32,000 bases of DNA, from positions 1,472,180-1,504,179 of the forward strand of contig NZ_LT963434.1 in assembly GCF_900199515.1 (NCBI RefSeq). The letters are read 5' to 3'. Made by a program: the position numbers and the translations under genes. Positions 18,491 through 32,000 of the stretch are shown here, piece after piece (positions within the stretch are counted from its first letter, which is position 1; each line of letters begins with the position of its first letter). The notes under the pieces were generated by a model. That model was given only the letters and a program-made list of their open reading frames with translations, had not been told where the DNA came from and did not search any database. Source of the stretch: Massilicoli timonensis. Lineage in GTDB: Bacteria > Bacillota_I > Bacilli_A > Erysipelotrichales > Erysipelotrichaceae.

Positions 18491-19396
18491 TCACATTTCT
18501 TTTTCCCATCGGCTTTCAGCAGCTTTCCATTGTTGTGAAAACTCTATTTTTCCAACAGCCGCTAGAAAAGGTTCTGTCAAAAATGCCTTGATCGTTTTAA
18601 GCACAGTGCTGAAATGATCCGTTTTAGTGTCTATCTTCAGGCAGAATGCTTTCCACTTCTTCTGCATAGCAGGATCATCTGCAAAGCGCATAACCTGTTC
18701 AAACTGCTCTATCACAAAGCTATGTTCACGATTTTCGAAAGTTTTTTTCAGTGCTTCACTGAGTACTTTGCCGTCAAAATCAAATTTATTGGCAAGATAA
18801 TAAATATCATAGTAATCTTTCATTCGACTGGAAAATTCCATCAGAGTGAGGATTGCATCTATTTTCTCAGCAATCGTTGTTTCAAGAGAATAGGTATTTA
18901 CCACCGGTGCAGTGAAATCATCAAGCTGCGTCGGGATTTTTCGCTTTTCTTGTTTTGGTACGATCACATCGCCCACACCGAAGTCTATATGAAATGGAGT
19001 TCGCGTATTTTTAATACGAGCCACAATAGAAGTCCCGATACCGGCATATTTCTTAGCAACCGCAATAGGCGCAATATCGTTAATTTCAAAGGTAATAAAA
19101 TCATTGCCGGTAGACATAGATAGGATTTCATCCAGTACAGATTTTAACTGTTCGGGCGTATTTGGTACTTTTTGAAGTAGGAAGTCCACATCCATCGTTA
19201 CCCTACTATCAAAATTGGTAACGGAATAAATAAACAAACCACCTTTGAGGATAAGGTTTTCTGCATATTTGGACTTTTCCAAACGGCGCAAAAATTCTTC
19301 TTGACAGAAAAGTTGGAGGCAAAGCTGATAGCTTCTTCCGCTTTCTTTTGCCTTGTTTTTGAGCCGTGCAAGTACGGATGCGGCAATATCAGCCAT
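18491..19396 (-). CDS. abiEii: AbiEii/AbiGii-family nucleotidyltransferase toxin (DUF1814)
   Basis: The N-terminus SVLARLKNKAKESGRSYQLCLQLFCQEEFLRRL...ILKGG is characteristic of AbiEii toxins. About 300 aa. It overlaps the upstream antitoxin gene by 8 nt. Confidence 0.8.
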   Translation of the reverse strand: MADIAASVLARLKNKAKESGRSYQLCLQLFCQEEFLRRLEKSKYAENLILKGGLFIYSVTNFDSRVTMDVDFLLQKVPNTPEQLKSVLDEILSMSTGNDFITFEINDIAPIAVAKKYAGIGTSIVARIKNTRTPFHIDFGVGDVIVPKQEKRKIPTQLDDFTAPVVNTYSLETTIAEKIDAILTLMEFSSRMKDYYDIYYLANKFDFDGKVLSEALKKTFENREHSFVIEQFEQVMRFADDPAMQKKWKAFCLKIDTKTDHFSTVLKTIKAFLTEPFLAAVGKIEFSQQWKAAESRWEKEM

Positions 19397-20030
19397 TGAT
19401 CAACACCTCCATTACATTCATAACTTTTGTATAAAGATTCATCTCTTTTGCATATTTAGACAAGTTCACAAGGTTCTTTTTTTTATCAGCAGCATAAGCA
19501 TTGACAGCCTTATTGAAAATTTCATTGTCGAGTTTTGTGCGATACTTAAAGCAGTCACAAATTGTTCTTTCGCGGTCATATATAGGAAGCATGACGCCGT
19601 TAAAATTGCTTGTAGTTTTACCCATATCTAGGAAATCCTTTTGAATATAATAAGCCTTCATCGGAAATTCTTCAATATTCTTTACGGCACGGGTGGCTGT
19701 TCGCGGCACAGCAATAGACCATTTGCGAGGAGAAAAATCACTATATCCATAATGGAACAAGGCAGATTCCACACAAATAATTCCTTGTGGAAGGATTTCT
19801 CTTATCCACTGTTCCTCTGTTATATGATTGCTCTTTGGAAGCTGATAAATGCCTCTGCGAACCCTCTCGATAACTCCTTCTTTACAGAAAGCCGCTACTT
19901 CATATTTATTTATTCCGCTAGCGACAAAATCCGAAGTTTTTGCAACTCCTCCGTTATTTTCAATTACTTTTATTAAACTTTCTTTTTTATTCAAGCGAGC
20001 ACCAACTTTCTGCATACAAAAAATAAACAT
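19389..20030 (-). CDS. abiEi: AbiEi-family antitoxin/transcriptional regulator
   Basis: The N-terminal wHTH region (GGVAKTSDFVASGINKYEVAAFCKEGVIERVRRGIYQL) is typical of AbiEi. The start is ambiguous: TTG at 20039, ATG at 20030 or ATG at 20015. None has a clear SD. Confidence 0.75.
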   Translation of the reverse strand: MFIFCMQKVGARLNKKESLIKVIENNGGVAKTSDFVASGINKYEVAAFCKEGVIERVRRGIYQLPKSNHITEEQWIREILPQGIICVESALFHYGYSDFSPRKWSIAVPRTATRAVKNIEEFPMKAYYIQKDFLDMGKTTSNFNGVMLPIYDRERTICDCFKYRTKLDNEIFNKAVNAYAADKKKNLVNLSKYAKEMNLYTKVMNVMEVLING

Positions 20031-20041
20031 TGTATGCAATT

Positions 20042-22476: not shown

Positions 22477-24228
22477 ATGGGCATGAGAAAAACTTTGCAA
22501 AAGATATACGCACTGCTGGAATGGAAACAGAAAGTAATCTTTATCATGATTTTGTTGATCATGCTTCTTTCTTCCGCTTTGACACAAGTTACACCAAAAG
22601 CCATTGGCTGGCTGACAGATGACATTTTTGCCGAGGGAAGAATGGCGTTTATCGATTTGCTGCCGATGCTACTGTTGATCTTAATTGTGAATGTCGTAAA
22701 TGAACTGCTTAAAATCTGGCGTAGACTGTTGGTGGAGGATACAGCGACCAAAACTGAAAAGAAAGCGCGCACACTTGTCATTGCTTCTCTCATGAAAGCG
22801 CCGCTGCGTTATTTTAAGGAAAACATGACCGGCAATATCCACGGCAGGTTGAATCGCTGTTTAGAAGGAACGATCAAACTAGAAAAATTGATATTTATGG
22901 ATTTAGCGCCAGCAGTATTTAATAGCATTGCTGCTGTGATTGTGATTTTTACGACCCTGCCTTTTACATTGGCGCTGCCGATGTTGCTGGTAATACCGAT
23001 CGGTGTATTGATCGTACTTCGACAGATCACAACACAAAAAGGCATACGAATTGCATTGCTGGAAACAAAGGCAAATATGGATGGTTCGCTGGTGGAATTG
23101 CTGAATGGAATCGAAGTGATCCGAATGGCAAACAGCACAATGATCGAAGAGCATCGTTTTTCGATCAAATCTGAAGAACTGCGTGAGAAAGAAATGAAGC
23201 ATCATAAACAGATGGCGAAATATGATGCGATGAAGTTTTTTAATGAAGTCTTTTTTACAGTGTTCATTATCGGTGCATCTGCTTATTTGGCGACACAGGG
23301 AATCATCAGTGTCGGTGCAGTGCTGACTGCCTATCTTTGTTTTTCTCAACTGATCAAACCTCTAGAGGAACTGCATCGGATTTTAGATGAATTATCAGAG
23401 AGTTTTGTACTGGCAGAGGATTTTTTCAAAATGGCGGAAATTGCCTGTGATTTTTCTTATCAGCCAGTTTCGGCGAAGCAACTGCTGTTCAAAAAGCACG
23501 ATATGATCTTCGCAGAAAAACTACGGCTAGCCTATGAATCAAATGAAGAAGTGCTGAAAGGCATTGACCTGAAAATAAAGAGCGGTTCTTTTATTGGGAT
23601 AGCCGGGCCCAGTGGGTGTGGTAAATCTTCACTGATCAAAGCAATTTGCAAGTTGGAAAAAAGTGAAGGAGCGCTATATATCGATGGTAGGGAAATAGAA
23701 TCACTGTCGCGGGAAATGTTGTCGGAGTTGATTGCATTGGTACCGCAAAATCCTTTTTTGATCGCAGGAACGATTTATGAGAATATCTGCTATGGATTGA
23801 AAGTGATGCCGAGTGAAGAGGAAGTCATGCAGGCGGTCGCAAAGGCAGGTCTCACGGAATTTGTGGAAAGCCAGCCGCAGAAGCTTCATACGCTGATAGC
23901 GGAAAGAGGCAATAATTTATCAGGCGGGCAACGGCAGCGAATCGCATTGGCGAGGATCTTTTTGCGTAAACCGAAAGTTTTAATTTTAGATGAGGCGACT
24001 TCAGCGCTGGATAATACTACAGAGCGTTTTGTTCAAAAGGAAATTGAGCGGTTGAAAGAAGAAAACGATATGACGATTATCTCCATAGCACACCGATTGA
24101 CGACATTACAAAACTGTGATGAGATCCTGGTAATGTATAACGGAATGATCGTACAGAAAGGGATTTATAAAGAATTGATTGAAAAAGAAGGCATTTTTAA
24201 TGACATGTATCATGGCAGATTAAAATGA
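22477..24228 (+). CDS. Fused ABC exporter (N-terminal 6-TM domain plus C-terminal ATPase; MsbA/MdlB-like half transporter)
   Basis: Walker A GPSGCGKSS, signature LSGGQRQRIALAR, Walker B VLILDEATSALD, H-loop SIAHR. The N-terminal half is hydrophobic. RBS is AAAGGAG. Confidence 0.85.
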   Translation: MGMRKTLQKIYALLEWKQKVIFIMILLIMLLSSALTQVTPKAIGWLTDDIFAEGRMAFIDLLPMLLLILIVNVVNELLKIWRRLLVEDTATKTEKKARTLVIASLMKAPLRYFKENMTGNIHGRLNRCLEGTIKLEKLIFMDLAPAVFNSIAAVIVIFTTLPFTLALPMLLVIPIGVLIVLRQITTQKGIRIALLETKANMDGSLVELLNGIEVIRMANSTMIEEHRFSIKSEELREKEMKHHKQMAKYDAMKFFNEVFFTVFIIGASAYLATQGIISVGAVLTAYLCFSQLIKPLEELHRILDELSESFVLAEDFFKMAEIACDFSYQPVSAKQLLFKKHDMIFAEKLRLAYESNEEVLKGIDLKIKSGSFIGIAGPSGCGKSSLIKAICKLEKSEGALYIDGREIESLSREMLSELIALVPQNPFLIAGTIYENICYGLKVMPSEEEVMQAVAKAGLTEFVESQPQKLHTLIAERGNNLSGGQRQRIALARIFLRKPKVLILDEATSALDNTTERFVQKEIERLKEENDMTIISIAHRLTTLQNCDEILVMYNGMIVQKGIYKELIEKEGIFNDMYHGRLK

Positions 24229-24260
24229 GGACGGTTTTGCTGTGCTGGCAGACTGACGGT

Positions 24261-24289
24261 TTGATAATGAAATAAAGAAACACTATAAT
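24261..24289 (+). promoter_or_regulatory. Near-consensus sigma-A promoter
   Basis: TTGATA (24261-24266), exactly 17 nt, TATAAT (24284-24289). Confidence 0.55.
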
Positions 24290-24390
24290 AGTAAATTCGA
24301 GTTATTTAGGCTACAAGACATAACGAGAGTATTAGTATATGACGAACCTTTTCGAGCACATCAATTCTCAATAGATGCAGTACAGCGAAT

Positions 24391-24876
24391 ATGAAGGGAA
24401 GCGGATTTCGGAAGATCGCAGATGCCTACCATGCTGCTCATAATTATCGGGATGAATTGGAGCTTAAATTTTATTCCGATGCAGCTTCGTTTCAAGTTAC
24501 ACTGTATAATTTGAATTATGGAACTGCAATAAACGCAACTAAAGCTATGATTGAAGATGAAAATGTTGCGATTGCTCCTGATTATCTTGCGATTGAGGTT
24601 GCGATTGATGGATTGAACGCAAGCCAAACTACGATTAAAAAAGCAAAAACAATATTCGCAAGCATGGGCATTGATGGCATCTTTGGACGTTCCGACATAG
24701 CCGCAATTACAAGCGATTCCGTTACTGCTGCCGGCAAACTCATTATAAAGCTGAAAAACGCAGATTTAATTGAAGCCGTCAGCGGGTTTGGAAAAGGGAA
24801 ATACAAATTTAAGGTTCCAAAACAAAAAGATGATACCTGTTATCAGGCATACGGTCGATCATGGACATTCGATTAA
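24391..24876 (+). CDS. Hypothetical protein; resembles the C-terminal part of AlbA_2/HATPase_c_4 putative ATP-binding regulators (possible 5'-truncated remnant)
   Basis: It begins at ..KGSGFRKI.., followed by ELELKFYSDAASFQVTLY and a C-terminal wHTH-like segment. In full-length family members this region sits at the end of a protein of more than 400 aa. There is no SD before the ATG, and the frame stays open upstream only to 24343. Confidence 0.35.
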   Translation: MKGSGFRKIADAYHAAHNYRDELELKFYSDAASFQVTLYNLNYGTAINATKAMIEDENVAIAPDYLAIEVAIDGLNASQTTIKKAKTIFASMGIDGIFGRSDIAAITSDSVTAAGKLIIKLKNADLIEAVSGFGKGKYKFKVPKQKDDTCYQAYGRSWTFD

Positions 24877-25319
24877 GCATATACAAGTTCCGTCAGCACA
24901 ATTTTCTATGCAAAGATGTGAATGATGTTGGGGAGGGGCAAATTACCGAATATCAGTAGGTTTTTGCAAACTAGCATGCAGTATTCTTTCGGAATGCGGA
25001 ATAAGGTAATCGTCTTCCTATGATAAGTGCCACACATCTGTTCAGACAGTGATTTCATAAAATGACAGCCTTTTCTGTATTGGTTTTCAGCGGTCATGCG
25101 GTCCTGTAACTGCATTTCAGTTTATTGCAAATATATGTATCCAGTGGCTGAAATCACCTTTTGCATAACAACTCTTGTACTTCCATTTTGGAAGAATAAA
25201 GATAAAATAGAAAGCCTATTAGATCATAGCAAAAAGGCAAGTGATTTAGCAGAATTCAAAACCTGTAATACGGGATATCCTACATCTCTTGCCTTTTGTT
25301 ACGATTCATTGCATGCCGT

Positions 25320-26564
25320 TTATAATTTACGCTTGATGATTTCTTCAATAAAACGAAGCAGTGTACCTTTGCTGAACTGTTTATAATATAGCGCAAACTC
25401 GTTATATATAATTTGATTTAAGATAGAATTGTCATAAGATATTTCTTTGAAGAAAGAAAATAAGCGTCGTTCTCTTTGATAAATTGGCAGATCGTACTCA
25501 AAATATGTTTTCAGATCTACATAAAGCAAAGAAGCATTTTCCATAATTGCACACTGGCTGATGATTTGGAATGGGTGCTTTGTAATATTGGAAGCGGAAT
25601 AATAAAGCAAGACAGCGATAATAGGAACTTTCGTTTGTAAAAAGTTATCCTCAAATAACTGTATGACTTTATCATATTCTTTATGATCAAACGAGTGAAT
25701 GATCGTATTGATAAGCCAAGCAAATTTCTTTTTCGGGTGAACCGGTTTGGTTTTGATCATCTGCTCCACTTCTTGATAGATTTCTGAATCATCTTCATTG
25801 TTTTCATGCACATAATTCAGTTTCATCACATAGACATCAAAAGAGCGATTATAGTTTTCGTTCTTTAATAAATCGTCCAGTAAAGCGTTGATTTGATAAA
25901 TATGTTTCGGAATGGATACAGTAGAAGTATCATATATCAATAGATCAGTTTCCAAAATGATTGAAGATAAATTCTGCTTTTGTACTTCTTCTAAAACTTT
26001 TCCGCATGCTTTCATATCTAAATGGTATTTATAATAGGAGCGAAAACACAGATCATATAACATGATTTGCAATTCATCGGGGAACAGAAAAGAAACATGC
26101 AAAAAGTGTTCCAATAAGTCGATGTCAATTTTTTCTACCTTATGATGGAAATCTTGAACAGCTTCTAAGAGCAGCCGGTATTCATTTTCAAATACAATAT
26201 CTGCTGCGAGCGGTTTAAGCAATGCTTCGCATAACTGATAGACTCCTTCATAATCAAGATAAAGAAACGCGTGATAGAGCGCATGGACAGTTTCCATATG
26301 CTTGGAAAAATAATCAGAAGCGCCTTCTTCATAACGAAGATCAAACTTGTCAAGCAGTTGAAGATACACTTTATCTTTAATTAAAGTCGGATTTTCAAGT
26401 AGTTTTTGATAAGTATGAAAAGAACAAATCGTTACTAGATTTGCATTGTGCATGGTAAATCCGAATTTTGTTTTAGAAAACAAAGCGTCGCCGTCTTTCG
26501 TGTATGTTTCAGCGCGATAGATTTCCAGTAATTTTGAAAGATGTTCTTTTTCTATGATCGGCAT
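25320..26564 (-). CDS. Hypothetical helical-repeat protein; candidate RNPP/NprR-like peptide-responsive regulator
   Basis: 414 aa with RBS AAGAGGA. It is rich in Y/F/L-spaced helical repeats. The N-terminal ...VTICSFHTYQKLLENPT-LIKDKVYLQLLDKFDL weakly resembles the helix 3-5 region of Rgg/PlcR-type HTH domains (ICxxSxLSxIExG). It lies directly downstream of a secreted-peptide gene. The functional call is inference. Confidence 0.35.
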   Translation of the reverse strand: MPIIEKEHLSKLLEIYRAETYTKDGDALFSKTKFGFTMHNANLVTICSFHTYQKLLENPTLIKDKVYLQLLDKFDLRYEEGASDYFSKHMETVHALYHAFLYLDYEGVYQLCEALLKPLAADIVFENEYRLLLEAVQDFHHKVEKIDIDLLEHFLHVSFLFPDELQIMLYDLCFRSYYKYHLDMKACGKVLEEVQKQNLSSIILETDLLIYDTSTVSIPKHIYQINALLDDLLKNENYNRSFDVYVMKLNYVHENNEDDSEIYQEVEQMIKTKPVHPKKKFAWLINTIIHSFDHKEYDKVIQLFEDNFLQTKVPIIAVLLYYSASNITKHPFQIISQCAIMENASLLYVDLKTYFEYDLPIYQRERRLFSFFKEISYDNSILNQIIYNEFALYYKQFSKGTLLRFIEEIIKRKL

Positions 26565-26594
26565 GGTGTTATTCCTCTTTAATACTCTTCAATG

Positions 26595-26622
26595 ATAAAT
26601 AAAATGTCAGGATCCCCCTGAC
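26595..26622 (-). terminator. Hairpin plus U-rich tract between the peptide gene and the 414-aa gene (attenuator / partial terminator)
   Basis: Minus strand GUCAGG-gggau-CCUGAC (26622-26606), followed by AUUUUAUUUAU. Confidence 0.45.
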
Positions 26623-26627
26623 AAATG

Positions 26628-26765
26628 TTAGTCGATATAATAACAATTTGGCCCTGTGCAATATGGAGCAGGTACCGGATCTCCGTCATTGGCAAATACC
26701 GTTGTCGATGTAAATGCAATCGTGAAGATAAAGCAAGACAATGCCGCTAAAACAACTTTTTTCAT
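26628..26765 (-). CDS. Unannotated 45-aa secreted peptide (Sec signal peptide plus 20-aa two-Cys C-terminal part)
   Basis: Manual reverse-complement translation gives MKKVVLAALSCFIFTIAFTSTTVFA|NDGDPVPAPYCTGPNCYYID*. A strong RBS AAAAGGAGG sits 6 nt before the ATG (26765). It has its own extended -10 promoter and a classic n-h-c signal region with a VFA cleavage motif. It falls below the ORF-track size cutoff. Confidence 0.7.
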   Translation of the reverse strand: MKKVVLAALSCFIFTIAFTSTTVFANDGDPVPAPYCTGPNCYYID

Positions 26766-26795
26766 AATAAACCTCCTTTTCCCCGATTTGGTTAT

Positions 26796-26804
26796 ATTAT
26801 AGCA
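26796..26804 (-). promoter_or_regulatory. Extended -10 promoter element of the secreted-peptide gene
   Basis: Minus strand TGcTATAAT (26804-26796), about 20 nt upstream of the RBS. Confidence 0.5.
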
Positions 26805-26931: not shown

Positions 26932-26948
26932 TATAGTCAGACTATAAT
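26932..26948 (+). promoter_or_regulatory. Perfect palindrome overlapping the -10 box of the maturase operon (candidate operator)
   Basis: TATAGTC-A-GACTATA (26932-26946) has 7-bp arms. TATAAT at 26943-26948 shares 4 nt with the right arm. There is no good -35, which suggests activator dependence. Confidence 0.45.
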
Positions 26949-27003: not shown

Positions 27004-28404
27004 ATGCAAACAAGACCTTTCATTCAATTATTTAAGACCACGTCGCATTATTATTTTTACGATGCGTACGTCAATCAAATCTCTGAACTCTCCGCAGCCG
27101 GCTATCAGTATTTGAAAGAGCATCAAATGATTGATTGTTTTTATAATGAAGAAATAGCACAATTATATAAAGAAGGATTTTTGCATGAAAATCCTATTTT
27201 AACATTTCAGCATCCGGCTACGGATTTCGTTGAAGATCTTACGACAAGAAAAGCAGGCACATTGGTCTTACAAATAACGCAGAACTGCAATTTACGCTGT
27301 TCCTACTGCCCTTACTCGCAAAGCGGCGAAAAACACAGGCATCACACCAATCAAAATATGAGCTGGGAGACCGCTAAGAAAGCAGTCGATTTCTACTATG
27401 ATAAATCCATCGATGCCGATACGGCAAATATTTCTTTTTACGGTGGAGAGCCGTTGCTGCAGTTTTCTTTGATGAAAGCAGTCGTCGCCTATTCCAAAAA
27501 GAAATTTGAAGGGAAGAAATGTGTGTTCAGCATTACGACCAACGCAACATTATTGACAAAAGAAATTGCCGATTTTTTGATTACAAATGAGTTTCGTCTG
27601 GCAATCAGTTTAGATGGAGATAAAGAAAGCAATGATCGCAATCGTAAATTTGTTTCTCAAAAAGGCAGCGTATTCGAGAAAGTCATCGAAACATTGCAGT
27701 ATCTCTATGAAAACGCACCGGAATTTGCGAAAAAGATCAACTTAAGCATGGTGATCGATCAAAGAAAAGATCTGAAAGGATTTCTGCATCTGTTTCGGGA
27801 ATATCCGTTTCTGAATCAAATGCAGATCAGCGTCAGCTTAATTGAAGATGATTATTTGGAAAATGAGGTTAGAGAGTCGAAAGCTTTTTATGAAGAATTT
27901 AGCTATTATCGTTTCTTGTCTTATTTAAGTGTCATATCTCCGCTGGATTTTACTGAAGATCTTAAATTTTTCGCTTCGATGAAAGAGAGCTATAAAAAAT
28001 TGGTGCTGCCATTTCAAGCGTCCGCAATCGGTAAAACGGCAATTCCAAGCGGGCAGTGCATTCCGGGCAATACCAAAGTAATGGTAACGGTGCAGGGCAA
28101 ATTATTCCCTTGTGAAAAAGTGAGCGAACGCAGAGAGGATTATTGCATCGGCACGCTTGATACAGGATATGACTACGAAAAGATAAAGGAAATCCTGAAT
28201 TTTTCAAGATATACCTTTGCCCTTTGTCGAAACTGTCCGGCCTTTCGTGAATGCACGCTCTGTTTCAAAACACACGGAGCGGGCGGTTTTAGCAGTACCG
28301 CTACCAAGATGAAATACTGTGCATTATGCAAACAGAATTTCGTTGAAGATTTGCGGGTACGCATGTATTTTAAGGAAATGGCGGATTGGAAAGGACGTGG
28401 ATAA
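27004..28404 (+). CDS. Radical SAM / SPASM-domain peptide maturase (CcpM-like, Cys-rich-peptide maturase type)
   Basis: CNLRCSYCPY (CxxxCxxC) follows a ~95-aa N-terminal domain. A GGEPLL motif is present. The C-terminal auxiliary-cluster cysteines are CIPGN...FPCEK, CRNCPAFRECTLC and YCALC. The ATG at 27004 follows GAGGGGAGGG; the track's GTG extension is unsupported. Confidence 0.85.
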   Translation: MQTRPFIQLFKTTSHYYFYDAYVNQISELSAAGYQYLKEHQMIDCFYNEEIAQLYKEGFLHENPILTFQHPATDFVEDLTTRKAGTLVLQITQNCNLRCSYCPYSQSGEKHRHHTNQNMSWETAKKAVDFYYDKSIDADTANISFYGGEPLLQFSLMKAVVAYSKKKFEGKKCVFSITTNATLLTKEIADFLITNEFRLAISLDGDKESNDRNRKFVSQKGSVFEKVIETLQYLYENAPEFAKKINLSMVIDQRKDLKGFLHLFREYPFLNQMQISVSLIEDDYLENEVRESKAFYEEFSYYRFLSYLSVISPLDFTEDLKFFASMKESYKKLVLPFQASAIGKTAIPSGQCIPGNTKVMVTVQGKLFPCEKVSERREDYCIGTLDTGYDYEKIKEILNFSRYTFALCRNCPAFRECTLCFKTHGAGGFSSTATKMKYCALCKQNFVEDLRVRMYFKEMADWKGRG

Positions 28405-28405
28405 G

Positions 28406-29461
28406 ATGGGGAAAACAGTGATCTTTCCATTTACGCTGGAGAACAGCAGCTTCTGTCAGGCATATTTAGATCAAGATGACGCCTGTGTGCTCGCATCCTT
28501 ATCGGGAACCGGTACGATCGATCAAAGCATTGGCAAAGCGCTGAATCGTTTGGATGGTACAGGCAGGATCGTCGATATCCACAGCATAGACCTTCGTGAG
28601 GTCGATAAGATCATTCTGCTTGAAAGCAAAAACAGCGAACTATATGAACACATTGACGAACTGCTTGTGAAATGGAATGCCTATCAAATAGAAGTGATCA
28701 GTTTTTCAGATAAATGCAGAGAGTTCATGCCGATGGCTGTTTTGCAGTGTCGTGATTTTCATGTTACTGATTCCTATCACTATGTGTTTATCGACAAGCC
28801 GATCATTTTTGTCGGTGGTATCAAAGAAACATCTGAAATTGCATGGCTCTCTTATCAGATCAAAAAAAGATTCGAGAAAAGAAAGCTCAAAAGCATCGTG
28901 ATTTCCCGATACGGATACAGCATCGATCAAGAATGCTATCCATATCCCGATGAATTTGTATCCGATCGTATAAGCGCAGAGTATAAAGTCTTACTGCTGA
29001 ATCAGTATCTGCAGTTTCTGATCCGAAAGCATGAACCGGATGTCATACTCATCGAAGTGATCGGTGGACCGTTAAGATTTGATTATCATGTATTTAATTA
29101 TTTCGGTGTCTATTACTATATCACTTCACAGGCGGTAAGCGCCGACTTATTTCTATGCACACTGCCGATCGGCGAATATGACGATGCGTATTTTATGAAG
29201 CTGAATGATTATATCCGACATAAATTTGATCTTACGATCGACGCTGCCTGTTTGATGAATATCAAATTTGAAGATAGTTTGAGCGTCACGATCGAAAATG
29301 ATGATGAATACTACTATGTATCTGATTCGATCTTGCAGCGATACTTAGAAAAGAACAGACAGGTGCGGGTCGTTCCTTTCGGCGCATGCACAGATGAAAG
29401 TTATTTAGACGCGGTATTTGCCGCCATATTGAAAAAACTGGAAGGTGCAGAAGATGAATGA
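28406..29461 (+). CDS. Peptide-maturation-system protein of unknown function (accessory partner of CcpM-type maturases)
   Basis: 351 aa, with its ATG 1 nt after the maturase stop. I see no recognisable catalytic motif. The position between the rSAM and ACP-like genes matches my recollection of a conserved clostridial cassette. Confidence 0.55.
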   Translation: MGKTVIFPFTLENSSFCQAYLDQDDACVLASLSGTGTIDQSIGKALNRLDGTGRIVDIHSIDLREVDKIILLESKNSELYEHIDELLVKWNAYQIEVISFSDKCREFMPMAVLQCRDFHVTDSYHYVFIDKPIIFVGGIKETSEIAWLSYQIKKRFEKRKLKSIVISRYGYSIDQECYPYPDEFVSDRISAEYKVLLLNQYLQFLIRKHEPDVILIEVIGGPLRFDYHVFNYFGVYYYITSQAVSADLFLCTLPIGEYDDAYFMKLNDYIRHKFDLTIDAACLMNIKFEDSLSVTIENDDEYYYVSDSILQRYLEKNRQVRVVPFGACTDESYLDAVFAAILKKLEGAEDE

Positions 29462-29723
29462 ACGTGAATGGATAGCGGAATTGGAGAAGATATTAGAAAC
29501 GATCTATCAAAAAAAGATCAGGATCGAAACGGTACTGTCAAACAGTCTGTTTGGCGCACCGTATTACTTTACGGCAATCGAACTGGTGTATTTCGTGTAT
29601 TTGCTGGAGAATGATTATTCGATCGCTTTTGACAAAAAATTCTTCTTAGATCGCAGCAATCTTTCTATGCAGGATCTCTTGACGTATTTGGTGCAGGCGA
29701 CGAATAAAAATTCAATAAACTGA
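29454..29723 (+). CDS. Acyl-carrier-protein-related small protein lacking the phosphopantetheine serine
   Basis: 89 aa. The helix pattern ...LFGAPYYFTAIELVYFVYLLENDYSIAF...MQDLLTYL parallels ACP ...DLGLDSLDxVELVMxLEEEFGIEI...V.DLv.Yi, but DSL is replaced by YYF. It overlaps the previous gene by 8 nt. Confidence 0.55.
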   Translation: MNEREWIAELEKILETIYQKKIRIETVLSNSLFGAPYYFTAIELVYFVYLLENDYSIAFDKKFFLDRSNLSMQDLLTYLVQATNKNSIN

Positions 29724-29743
29724 GAAAGAAAGGAGGGAATGAG

Positions 29744-29911
29744 ATGTTGAAGAAAGTAAACAAAGCGACTTTGATGACAACGGAAATTGCGCCGAAGGCA
29801 ACTTGTTACTGTAAGGCGACTTGCTTTGGACCGGCTTCTGAGAGATCGAATTTTTATGAAGCTAATCAACAAGCTGCTTCTAGATACGGCAAAGTTTCAG
29901 ATGTTCAGTAA
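29744..29911 (+). CDS. Unannotated 55-aa RiPP precursor peptide (three Cys in a CYCKATC core)
   Basis: Manual translation gives MLKKVNKATLMTTEIAPKATCYCKATCFGPASERSNFYEANQQAASRYGKVSDVQ*. The RBS AAAGGAGGG (29729-29737) sits 6 nt before the ATG. It is the last gene of the maturase operon and is followed by a GC-rich hairpin. It falls below the ORF-track cutoff. Confidence 0.7.
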   Translation: MLKKVNKATLMTTEIAPKATCYCKATCFGPASERSNFYEANQQAASRYGKVSDVQ

Positions 29912-29920
29912 TCATGGGCA

Positions 29921-29953
29921 ATAGGGGGGAGTACAGGGTTTTGCTCCCCCTAT
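29921..29953 (+). terminator. GC-rich hairpin after the precursor gene (attenuator / stabiliser; no clear U-tail)
   Basis: ATAGGGGGGAG (29921-29931) pairs with CTCCCCCTAT (29944-29953) across a 12-nt loop. Confidence 0.5.
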
Positions 29954-30021
29954 GTCATAATAAAAGAAAAACAATCATAACGAATTGATAAAGAGATATA
30001 GATTAAGAGGAGGGATCAAAT

Positions 30022-30915
30022 ATGGAAAAGATCGTAGAAATTAAGGGATTATGCAAAAAATTCGGTAAGACTGAGGTACTGCATGACGTATCATTTGATA
30101 TTTATGAAGATGAGATCGTCGGATTTATCGGACCAAACGGAGCCGGTAAAAGTACGACAATGAAATGTATGTGCAATCTGATCTTTCCAAGCGCAGGTAC
30201 GATAAAGATATGCGGCTATGACATCGTAAAAGAAAGAGAAAAAGCATTGGCAAAACAGTCCTCGTTGATCGAAACTCCGGGATTGTTTCCAAATTTGACC
30301 GGAAAAGAAAACATCGAATATTTTGCCTCTTATAAAAAAATACCGCAGTCTAAAATAGAAGAGATCATTCAATTCATGAATTTAGGCGATGGTCTTTACA
30401 GACGAACCGCAAAATATTCACTGGGAATGAAACAGCGATTGGCGTTAGGGATCGCCTTGTTATCCGACCCGAAATTGTTGATCTTGGATGAACCGACCAA
30501 CGGGCTGGATCCGGCAGGTGTATTTGACCTTAGAAATCAGTTAAAAACACTGGCAAAAGAAAAGCATGTATCCATACTGGTATCCTCTCATCAGTTAGGA
30601 GAATTAGAGAAAATATCCGACCGCTATATTTGCATCAACAAAGGAAAGATCGTAGAAAATCCAAAGCAGATGAAAAATGACAGCTGCTATCACATTACAA
30701 TGAAAAAAACAGAGCAAGTGGAAAAGTTGATGGAACAGGCAGCATCTGTCTACTCTTACACTTATCAGGAAAACGGATATGTCATACTGGTAAAAGAAAA
30801 TCACAAAATACAGGATATTTTGCATTTATTTCAAAAAGAACAGATCGAATATGAGGACATCACGAAAAAAGTCATTGATATTGAAACCATGTATAGTGAA
30901 CTATATGAGGCATGA
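30022..30915 (+). CDS. ABC-2 type transporter ATP-binding protein (bacteriocin export/immunity type)
   Basis: Walker A GPNGAGKST, signature YSLGMKQRLAL, Walker B LLILDEPTNGLD, H-loop SSHQ. RBS is AAGAGGAGGG. Confidence 0.85.
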   Translation: MEKIVEIKGLCKKFGKTEVLHDVSFDIYEDEIVGFIGPNGAGKSTTMKCMCNLIFPSAGTIKICGYDIVKEREKALAKQSSLIETPGLFPNLTGKENIEYFASYKKIPQSKIEEIIQFMNLGDGLYRRTAKYSLGMKQRLALGIALLSDPKLLILDEPTNGLDPAGVFDLRNQLKTLAKEKHVSILVSSHQLGELEKISDRYICINKGKIVENPKQMKNDSCYHITMKKTEQVEKLMEQAASVYSYTYQENGYVILVKENHKIQDILHLFQKEQIEYEDITKKVIDIETMYSELYEA

Positions 30916-30917
30916 TC

Positions 30918-32000
30918 ATGTTAAAGTTAGAATTGAAACGACTGTTTAAGAGTCCGAAAAATATAGGGGTCGTCTTCTGTATGATCGTGTTTTCGTTTTT
31001 TATCCTGTACCAGTTGAATGAAAAAAGAGTCGAATATGATGAAGTGCAGTTAAAGGAACTGTATGCGGCGAGTGCGATTGCCAAACAAGAAAAAGAACAA
31101 CTGAAATATGTAGAAGAAACGCCGGAAGTGGCAGAAGCAAATGAGTATTGGGATTTCGAGGGCAGATATGCCAGTTATCTGCGCGGAAAATTTAATCCTC
31201 TAAGCGATAAAGATATTTTTACGAAAGAAGAACGAACTACCCTTGAAAAAGATCGTTATCGGCACATATTAGATGCGTGGGATAAAGAATACAATAAGGC
31301 ATATTTGGAACTTGCCAAGACACAGAAGGAATTGAAAAAAGAAATCATATTGCGAGAGTATTTGTTGGGACATAAGATCGAGCAGTATGATACGCCGTAT
31401 GAAGTAAATACGATGAACTATTTAGTGAATTTCTTTCAATCACCGAATGTATTTGTCTTTCTGATTTTAATCGCATTTGCTTCGATCGATGTCATTACCA
31501 AGGATTTTGACTGTGATAGTTATAAACCGTTATATACGATGCCGGTTGCCAGAAAGAAAATTATTCGATCAAAGGTCGAAGCGGTATTGTTGTTTGCGCT
31601 GTTTGCGATTAGTGTTGCCATTCTCCTGCCGTCAGTTGCGGCCGCATGGATCGGTGGAACAGGAACTTTGGAATATCCGCAAGTGATGGAAGATTTCAGT
31701 ATATGGATCGCATTTGATTATGTGCTGAAATGTATGTTGATCTTGCTGGTATTGATTTTGTTTACGATTTCTGTCATTACTTTGGTATCTGTTTCTTTAA
31801 GAAACGGTACATCGGCAATGATGGCGATCGGTTCCTATTTCATTATTTTATATTGCATGAGTGAATTAGAACTTCGCTTCCCCAATGTTTTATACTATAT
31901 TCCGCTTTTCTCTGTTGATGTTGCTTATACCGTTAATGTCAAATACTTTTCGATCCTGCTGTTCAGTGTTTGTTCGCTGTTTATGATTATATTAAGCATC
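30918..32000 (+). CDS. ABC-2 type transporter permease (partial, runs off the window)
   Basis: The ATG lies 2 nt after the ATPase stop. My translation is open for 361 codons to the window end. TM1 (GVVFCMIVFSFFILY) is followed by a ~165-aa charged helical loop and then several TM segments. It is absent from the ORF track because no stop lies in the window. Confidence 0.7.
   Translation, partial: MLKLELKRLFKSPKNIGVVFCMIVFSFFILYQLNEKRVEYDEVQLKELYAASAIAKQEKEQLKYVEETPEVAEANEYWDFEGRYASYLRGKFNPLSDKDIFTKEERTTLEKDRYRHILDAWDKEYNKAYLELAKTQKELKKEIILREYLLGHKIEQYDTPYEVNTMNYLVNFFQSPNVFVFLILIAFASIDVITKDFDCDSYKPLYTMPVARKKIIRSKVEAVLLFALFAISVAILLPSVAAAWIGGTGTLEYPQVMEDFSIWIAFDYVLKCMLILLVLILFTISVITLVSVSLRNGTSAMMAIGSYFIILYCMSELELRFPNVLYYIPLFSVDVAYTVNVKYFSILLFSVCSLFMIILSI

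Follow-up and report, generated by a model that had tools for sequence, protein, structure and literature searches.

The window analysed here, a 32,000-nt stretch of the genome of Massilicoli timonensis (GCF_900199515.1, contig NZ_LT963434.1, positions 1,472,180 to 1,504,179), a human-gut member of the Erysipelotrichaceae (PMC6796691), contains two adjacent genes on its minus strand, which encode a 45-aa peptide and, after a spacing of 60 nt, a 414-aa protein. Both are divergent from an operon for a ribosomally made peptide that is modified after translation (RiPP), which includes a CcpM-like radical S-adenosylmethionine (radical-SAM) maturase. A preliminary description, which was made from the sequence alone, had proposed that the two genes form a pair of an exported pro-peptide and a peptide receptor, and for brevity we refer to the 414-aa protein as the candidate receptor or receptor. 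All elements it had listed, i.e. the small gene with its ribosome-binding site, the extended -10 promoter, the hairpin and the 414-aa gene, are present with the right coordinates, and the strand is minus (Table 1). The small gene had been called unannotated, which holds for the list of open reading frames (ORFs) used at that time, whereas NCBI carries its product as the hypothetical protein WP_180963113.1.

Residues 1-25 of the peptide comprise an n-region with a charge of +2 (MKK), a hydrophobic h-region and a V-F-A cleavage motif, which fits a Sec type I signal peptide. The 20-mer that follows is acidic with a net charge of -3, has no basic residue and contains the pair Cys36-x4-Cys41, in agreement with the signal peptide and the 20-aa exported part with CxxxxC described before. 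When we applied a crude signal-peptide filter to the 130 ATG-initiated ORFs of 30-80 aa in the window, a single one passed, which is the 45-aa ORF. We also considered a lipoprotein reading of Cys11, which was rejected by sequence reasoning, as this cysteine is too near the N-terminus and lysines lie within the stretch that has to be uncharged.

The peptide promoter was not picked up by a consensus promoter scan because its -35 element is weak. The extended -10 element probably drives the peptide transcript and the receptor transcript too, and no separate receptor promoter is evident. The region between the two genes contains a hairpin, TGTCAGGgggatCCTGACA, followed by TTTTATTTAT, at 26605-26623(-), which begins 4 bases past the peptide stop codon; a terminator scan found three terminator-like sites in the region compared to 0.8 expected. 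Judged from its sequence, the hairpin is probably a leaky or partial terminator that sets the ratio of peptide to receptor transcript, with more peptide than receptor transcript. The receptor ORF starts about 40 nt past the hairpin and is preceded by its own ribosome-binding site, AAAGAGGAA.

Table 1 Features of the peptide-receptor locus and of the divergent RiPP operon. Positions refer to the 32,000-nt window. ABC, ATP-binding cassette; ACP, acyl carrier protein; TPR, tetratricopeptide repeat.
Feature	Position	Strand	Basis or remark
45-aa pro-peptide gene	26628-26765, stop codon included	-	ORF; gene called in all related loci; encodes MKKVVLAALSCFIFTIAFTSTTVFANDGDPVPAPYCTGPNCYYID
Predicted signal peptide, codons 1-25	26691-26765	-	MKKVVLAALSCFIFTIAFTSTTVFA; signal-peptide features
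Predicted exported 20-mer NDGDPVPAPYCTGPNCYYID, codons 26-45	26631-26690	-	
Allele-defining peptide codons 37 (T/S), 42 (Y/H/I), 43 (Y/F)	26637-26657	-	Three alleles; nucleotide-diversity peak
Shine-Dalgarno AAGGAGG, 6 nt 5' of the peptide ATG	26772-26778	-	Read from sequence
Extended -10 TGcTATAAT, ~30 nt further upstream	26796-26804	-	Read from sequence; -35 weak
Terminator-like hairpin and U-tract, 7-8 bp G+C-rich stem, between peptide stop and receptor start	26595-26623	-	Terminator scan and fold
414-aa candidate peptide receptor, cytoplasmic, helical-repeat (TPR-like)	25320-26564	-	WP_102268728.1, NCBI hypothetical protein
TPR-like motif HPKKKFAWLINTIIHSFDHKEYDKVIQLFEDNFLQTK, approximate, ~residues 276-312	25629-25739	-	Family profile vs consensus TPR
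Receptor codons 212-223, hypervariable block, candidate specificity determinant	25896-25931	-	Matched to peptide allele
Perfect 15-bp palindrome TATAGTCAGACTATA, candidate operator only	26932-26946	.	Overlaps -10-like TATAAT 26943-26948
Divergent RiPP operon, presumed regulatory target	27004-32000	+	NCBIfam hits; synteny conserved in all strains
CcpM-like radical-SAM maturase	27004-28404	+	TIGR04068, E = 1e-124, 416.7 bits vs cutoff 500
TIGR04066-like protein	28406-29461	+	E = 6e-33, 114 bits vs cutoff 200
ACP-like protein	ends 29723	+	TIGR04069 weak, 18.5 bits vs cutoff 70
55-aa Cys-containing RiPP precursor	29744-29911	+	No NCBIfam hit
ABC ATPase	30022-30915	+	Followed by a permease

The 414-aa protein is all-helical, has no signal peptide or transmembrane segment apparent in its sequence, and gave no sequence match in Pfam, NCBIfam or the PDB. 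When 5.8 billion proteins were searched by a word index, orthologs with at least 93% identity were all that was recovered, and an exhaustive HMMER scan of 1.84 billion representative proteins revealed six relatives at E <= 1e-3, which are ~410 aa long and 23-26% identical. Three more relatives, from Amedibacillus and Longicatena, both Erysipelotrichaceae, were obtained by a profile search. Judging by these searches, the receptor family is very small and lineage-restricted, with about eight distant relatives. Scans of species-representative genomes for the receptor and for the radical-SAM protein yielded nothing, and the family alignment is too divergent for a pattern search; a tblastn search of plasmids and phages with the receptor gave no match.

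Sequence homology of the 414-aa protein to Rap, Rgg, NprR, PlcR, PrgX or AimR was not found, and the profile hits in the PDB were designed TPR proteins only. The family profile matched these designed consensus TPRs at profile positions 274-312 with E = 3e-5 to 1e-3 (for the coordinates in Table 1, profile positions were read as residue numbers), and weak Pfam hits to TPR_8, TPR_14 and TPR_19 were obtained with other members of the family. An AlphaFold2 (AF2) model from the single sequence was unusable, with a predicted local distance difference test (pLDDT) score of 41. The model built from an 8-sequence alignment reached a pLDDT of 69 and a predicted template modelling (pTM) score of 0.63, with residues 70-330 at a pLDDT of 75-91. 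In a Foldseek search of 350,542 PDB chains with this model, which the preliminary description had suggested as a check, NprR came out on top (5dbk_B and 4gpk chains), followed by Rap of phage phi3T (8rtc, 8rst), RapF, RapI and AimR. The top matches had template modelling (TM) scores of 0.42-0.55 at weak E-values, with NprR and Rap at 0.46-0.55, and generic TPR, pentatricopeptide repeat (PPR) and proteasome proteins had TM scores of 0.15-0.35; a fold search of BFVD gave generic TPR or Sel1 matches only, at low TM. Given these weak E-values, we regard the assignment of the modelled receptor to an NprR/Rap-like TPR superhelix as good but not conclusive.

Within the receptor family, conservation is highest in the N-terminal 80 residues, in which C47, S48, T51 and Y52 are invariant. 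In the Amedibacillus branch (P0007-9) the sequence found there, VCSADTYSRIENGK, looks like a recognition helix of the XRE type, and a match to HTH_31 was found in this branch only, at sub-threshold E-values of 0.026-0.3. The weak resemblance of the N-terminus to helix-turn-helix (HTH) domains, which had been reported in the preliminary description, was not confirmed for the window protein, neither in Pfam nor by a profile search of the PDB, which was negative. An hhalign comparison with five XRE domains placed the motif CS..TY..L in the register of the recognition helix, at a sub-significant probability of 1.4%.

For the comparison across strains we used 25 loci from independent assemblies (strains and metagenomes), which were collected by a metagenome scan and by exact look-ups of receptor alleles and represent 12 distinct haplotypes. 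The 45-aa gene was called independently by gene callers in 25/25 loci with its frame intact in all of them. The peptide occurs in three alleles, …PYCTGPNCYYID (window), …PYCTGPNCHYID and …PYCSGPNCIFID, which differ at residues 37, 42 and 43 only, set in the invariant frame C36-x-G-P-N-C41-x-x-I-D, while the signal peptide and the stretch NDGDPVPAPYC are invariant. Codons L9, P30, G38, P39 and C41 vary synonymously only, and amino-acid changes are found at 37, 42 and 43. From this contrast between synonymous-only change at conserved codons and replacements at three positions we conclude that the 45-aa ORF is translated and under selection. The numbers of database contigs per peptide allele were 126, 84 and 83, which are counts and not unbiased frequencies, and suggest that the three alleles are roughly similar in abundance. 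A non-TPR fold, a small ORF that is not conserved or a frame that is not preserved had been named beforehand as outcomes that would speak against the pair; we looked at all three and observed none.

The alleles of the two genes are matched. The peptide …CTGPNCYYID is accompanied by DTSTVSIPK at receptor residues 212-220, …CTGPNCHYID by DVYTVSIPK, and …CSGPNCIFID by NVFTSLIPN, and each of these receptor versions occurs with one peptide allele only in the 12 haplotypes. At receptor residue 214, each peptide type, hereafter pherotype (YY, HY and IF, after peptide residues 42 and 43), has an amino acid of its own (S, Y or F). In receptor codons 212-235, 15/15 variable nucleotides are fixed within pherotypes, 14 of them in codons 212-223, whereas 36/40 variable nucleotides in the intervening receptor codons 110-209 segregate within pherotypes. 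Between two of the loci (L015 and L014) there are 25 differences in 1448 nt, 8 of which fall within the final 13 codons of the peptide gene and another 13 within receptor codons 212-223. The window and L001 share 97.9% identity over 9,540 nt, i.e. they are ~2% different, with 0-9 differences in most 250-nt bins; exceptions are the receptor N-terminal half, at about 8%, and the gene for the RiPP precursor.

In its codons 8-209 (25938-26543(-)), the window receptor is distinguished from the other receptors of the YY type by AA120-121, KV142-143, II202-203 and ET205-206, and from those of the HY and IF types by H8, N58/T60/L61, S87 and GV107-108. This mosaic pattern in the sequences points to repeated recombination within the receptor gene. 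The peptide tail and the receptor patch, which is located ~700 nt away, are coupled across recombined DNA, as is expected of a co-adapted signal and receptor, and because the intervening receptor DNA has recombined, we read the coupling as support for co-adaptation, and as indirect evidence that the receptor may recognise its own peptide specifically. The RiPP precursor served as a control: receptor proteins of identical sequence were accompanied by varying precursor alleles. Since the precursor alleles reassort in this way, the receptor follows the 45-aa peptide rather than the RiPP, and a receptor that senses the RiPP itself was rejected for the same reason.

The reading of the two genes as a Sec-exported pro-peptide and a cytoplasmic helical-repeat receptor is supported by three independent lines of evidence, i.e. 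the fold matches together with the TPR profile, the sequence marks of the peptide and, as the strongest line, the matched alleles in the 12 haplotypes, and the proposal of an exported pro-peptide with a receptor like those of RNPP systems thus withstood the analysis. We conclude, with a probability of roughly 0.7, that they constitute a quorum-sensing pair of the RRNPP type (Rap/Rgg/NprR/PlcR/PrgX-like) with three pherotypes, which probably controls the RiPP operon.

The following mechanism is what we infer for how the peptide is exported, processed, taken up again and bound by the receptor, for the binding of DNA and for the choice of the target operon. The 45-aa product would be exported via Sec and cut after VFA25, releasing the acidic 20-mer NDGDPVPAPYCTGPNCYYID, and the signal would be a C-terminal fragment of this 20-mer which includes at least residues 37-45, C-[T/S]-GPNC-[Y/H/I]-[Y/F]-ID. 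The fragment would be re-imported and bound in the TPR-like groove of the cytoplasmic 414-aa receptor near residues 212-220, which may help to choose among the three peptide alleles. The peptide gene would be transcribed from its own extended -10 promoter, with the leaky hairpin passing a fraction of the transcripts into the receptor gene. Most likely, the divergent CcpM-like RiPP/ABC operon would be regulated in response to the peptide, and probably the pair itself as well.

By its sequence matches, the presumed target operon is a clear relative of the CcpM system (TIGR04065-04069) but not an equivalog, because the scores for TIGR04068, TIGR04066 and TIGR04069 are below the curated cutoffs (Table 1). 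A literature look-up of CcpM/TIGR04068 yielded nothing bearing on regulation. The promoter of the radical-SAM operon has a good -10 element, TATAAT (26943-26948), and no -35 element. A palindrome, TATAGTCAGACTATA, is located ~55 nt 5' of the radical-SAM gene, with GTGTGAT direct repeats flanking it; its conservation is no more than that of the intergenic region as a whole. By analogy, an operator overlapping the -10 element would suit a TprA-like repressor that is relieved by the peptide (PMC5436883).

The 55-aa precursor encoded in this operon consists of an invariant N-terminal part of 31 residues, MLKKVNKATLMTTEIAPKATCYCKATCFGPA, and a hypervariable C-terminal part of 24 residues (window, L001, L014 and L026-L037). 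At least four C-terminal alleles were observed, e.g. SERSNFYEANQQAASRYGKVSDVQ, SEKANFYRANEQAAKDYGKVSDVQ, DQRQNFYEANRLAAATYGKVSDVQ and DQKQNFYRANLQASAVYGKVTEVQ, which reassort independently of the peptide and receptor alleles, and this C-terminal region represents the second divergence hot spot of the locus.

Among the distant homologs of the receptor, the genes of P0003, P0005 and P0006 each immediately precede three genes for an ABC-2 exporter, although their neighbourhoods are unrelated in other respects, which suggests from gene context that the ancestral role of the family may have been the control of an adjacent exporter. P0007 and P0008 are solitary or precede a DUF1307 lipoprotein. The intergenic regions of three of these loci (L003 9233-9330, L008 9239-9336 and L011 9236-9334) share a -10-like ATAATC[GA]TCAGTTTT, and no motif was common to the intergenic region of the window and those of the distant homologs. 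A 26-aa ORF with PYDCLSCGY in L003 was rejected as a peptide gene, as it is without a ribosome-binding site and has a different cysteine spacing.

Several points weigh against the interpretation as an RRNPP-type pair. The AF2 model is poor at residues 1-70 and 330-414, the best Foldseek E-value is only 1.6e-2, and a Pfam HTH search with the N-terminus of the window protein gave no match at E <= 10. There is no Opp permease within the 32-kb window, and the palindrome is unique in the window yet not beyond chance. The peptide has no homolog outside Massilicoli timonensis, since the 96%-identical cluster to which it belongs was all that was recovered from 5.8 billion proteins, and no convincing exported small ORF was found beside the distant receptor homologs, which are 15-24% identical (L003, L006-L008 and L011). 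Deep conservation can therefore not support the pair; orphan receptors are common among RRNPP families. The sample of strains comprises 12 haplotypes only, and most loci were fetched by their exact receptor sequence, meaning that the allele frequencies are not an unbiased sample. Finally, tight linkage (60 nt) contributes to the association between peptide and receptor.

The alternative that survives best assumes a genuine pair in which the receptor is Rap-like, i.e. does not bind DNA but sequesters or modifies another protein, or regulates genes elsewhere, e.g. an ABC exporter. This would account for the HTH domain that could not be demonstrated and for the Rap proteins among the best structural matches, and the distant homologs associate with ABC-2 exporters, not with RiPP genes. 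We nevertheless consider it rather unlikely: the N-terminal 80 residues are the most conserved ones and read XRE-like in the P0007-9 branch (VCSADTYSRIENGK), adjacent genes are the usual targets of one-component RRNPP regulators (PMC10075063), and the divergent arrangement with the RiPP operon is kept in all strains.

It is less probable still that the two genes are unrelated neighbours, whose alleles match because of tight linkage or of gene-conversion patches imported together from divergent strains. The short distance between the genes and the small number of haplotypes are compatible with this explanation, and the window allele differs across the receptor N-terminal half (codons 8-218) in a way that looks like an imported block. 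Linkage predicts a decay of association with distance, yet sites located 330-625 nt from the variable part of the peptide segregate within pherotypes, while the block ~700 nt away is fully associated. Moreover, nearly all differences between the HY and IF alleles are confined to the peptide tail and codons 212-223, and the changes in these two segments are mostly non-synonymous.

That the 45-aa product is instead an effector (a Sec-dependent bacteriocin-like peptide or a second radical-SAM substrate) with the 414-aa protein as its immunity, chaperone or recognition partner is highly improbable: co-variation is seen in toxin/immunity pairs too, the cysteine pair and the C41-x3-D45 spacing are reminiscent of thioether-forming radical-SAM substrates such as PapB-type ranthipeptides, and the peptide gene sits inside the RiPP cluster, but the exported part is strongly acidic (net -3) without any basic residue, in which it differs from class II bacteriocins that depend on Sec. 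Furthermore, RiPP leaders are not Sec signal peptides, the 55-aa Cys-containing precursor already occupies the canonical position in the cluster, and RiPP genes are absent where relatives of the 414-aa protein are encoded. The protein itself, cytoplasmic and TPR-like and with a fold resembling NprR/Rap, does not look like the immunity proteins known so far.

Some further features were observed around the pair. A gene for a 161-aa protein at window 24391-24876(+) is convergent with the receptor gene, and five loci (L002, L028, L031, L034 and L035) have a 118-aa gene instead; divergence is raised at window 24250-25000. In L033 (6938-10375, GCA_024462795.1) the 583-aa ABC exporter of the window (22477-24228) is shortened to 443 aa and lies beside TnpV and a DDE transposase, which places an inserted insertion sequence at the cluster edge in this strain. 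Upstream of the cluster, window 18491-20039(-) contains two ORFs of 301 aa and 216 aa, the second of which weakly matches the AbiEi antitoxin; they may represent a type IV toxin-antitoxin pair.

One of the known systems closest to the pair is NprR/NprX of the Bacillus cereus group. NprR has a size of ~420 aa, whereas PlcR has 285 aa and Rgg about 285 aa. The candidate receptor shares with NprR its size (414 vs ~420 aa), the cytoplasmic location, an adjacent gene for a Sec-type pro-peptide of ~45 aa and the best structural match (5dbk, 4gpk). It differs in that no sequence similarity to NprR is detectable and an HTH domain is not demonstrable, and the host belongs to the Erysipelotrichaceae and not to the Bacillaceae. 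The gene order is different as well: the peptide gene is located upstream with a hairpin between the genes, while the NprX gene is located downstream of NprR. This order, together with the two invariant cysteines in the signal region, sets the pair apart from described systems, as had been pointed out in the preliminary description.

PlcR/PapR has four pherotypes with co-varying receptor and peptide alleles, the variable residues being located in the C-terminal part of the pro-peptide (PMC2441798). Likewise, discrete co-varying alleles are found here in one species group, three in number (peptide 37, 42 and 43; receptor 212-220). PlcR is much shorter, has a clear XRE HTH domain, is followed by papR downstream and has a regulon of virulence factors instead of an adjacent RiPP cluster; it was not among the top 50 structural hits in Foldseek.

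A quorum-sensing pair beside a RiPP cluster is known from TprA/PhrA of Streptococcus pneumoniae and mitis, in which C-terminal heptapeptides (LDVGKAD or VDLGLAD) act and the adjacent lantibiotic cluster is controlled (PMC5436883). As in that system, a candidate regulator and a predicted exported peptide lie here beside a RiPP cluster, and the peptide ends with an acidic D (…CYYID). No sequence homology was found, TprA is a repressor with a PlcR-type HTH domain, and the RiPP is a lanthipeptide there compared to the CcpM-like radical-SAM type here. In streptococcal Rgg/SHP systems, a quorum-sensing regulator and its peptide gene are divergent from a radical-SAM RiPP (RaS-RiPP) operon that ends in transporter genes (PMC13361665, PMC8092268, PMC9389541), and the pair described here likewise directly adjoins a divergent radical-SAM RiPP operon with transporter genes at its end. 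SHPs are short and hydrophobic, leave the cell through PptAB, undergo processing by Eep and have no Sec signal (PMC7564271, PMC11323143), whereas the present pair comprises a Sec-type acidic peptide and an NprR-sized receptor, and Rgg has a clear HTH domain. Quorum-sensing control of RiPP clusters, with pherotypes, is thus already well established (TprA/PhrA, Rgg/SHP).

The RRNPP_detector tool searches for TPR receptors, 250-500 aa long, that have as a neighbour a small ORF with a ribosome-binding site and a secretion signal; RiPP biosynthetic gene clusters (BGCs) are the most frequent neighbours of its candidates, and 196 BGCs adjoin candidate RRNPP systems (PMC10075063). The same operational definition applies to this pair, in which the small ORF has the size (10-100 aa), the ribosome-binding site and the secretion signal. 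The tool requires a hit to a TPR hidden Markov model, and the 414-aa protein, which is without one at Pfam thresholds, would probably be missed. The Erysipelotrichaceae are not among the families listed for BGCs linked to quorum-sensing systems (PMC10075063), and we found no RRNPP system for this family in the searched literature.

A further-reaching interpretation, which we put forward as a tentative and on balance doubtful one, is that the 414-aa protein represents a new receptor family without similarity to the established RRNPP subfamilies, so far found in Erysipelotrichaceae only, and that the signal is constrained by an invariant Cys-x4-Cys loop, either disulfide-cyclised or otherwise, which would be present in no described RRNPP pheromone. 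The three pherotypes, for which the numbers of database contigs from this human-gut commensal are comparable, would then gate the production of a RiPP with a hypervariable precursor as a kin-discrimination module, with signal types and weapon types reassorting independently.

If the reading as a quorum-sensing pair is true, it would extend RRNPP-type quorum sensing to the Erysipelotrichaceae by way of a receptor that domain-based detectors miss. The natural series of three alleles would provide ready-made specificity predictions for peptide residues 37, 42 and 43 versus receptor residues 212-220, and synthetic C-terminal peptides might be of practical use for activating a silent CcpM-like RiPP cluster in DSM 103513, a gut isolate that can be cultivated.

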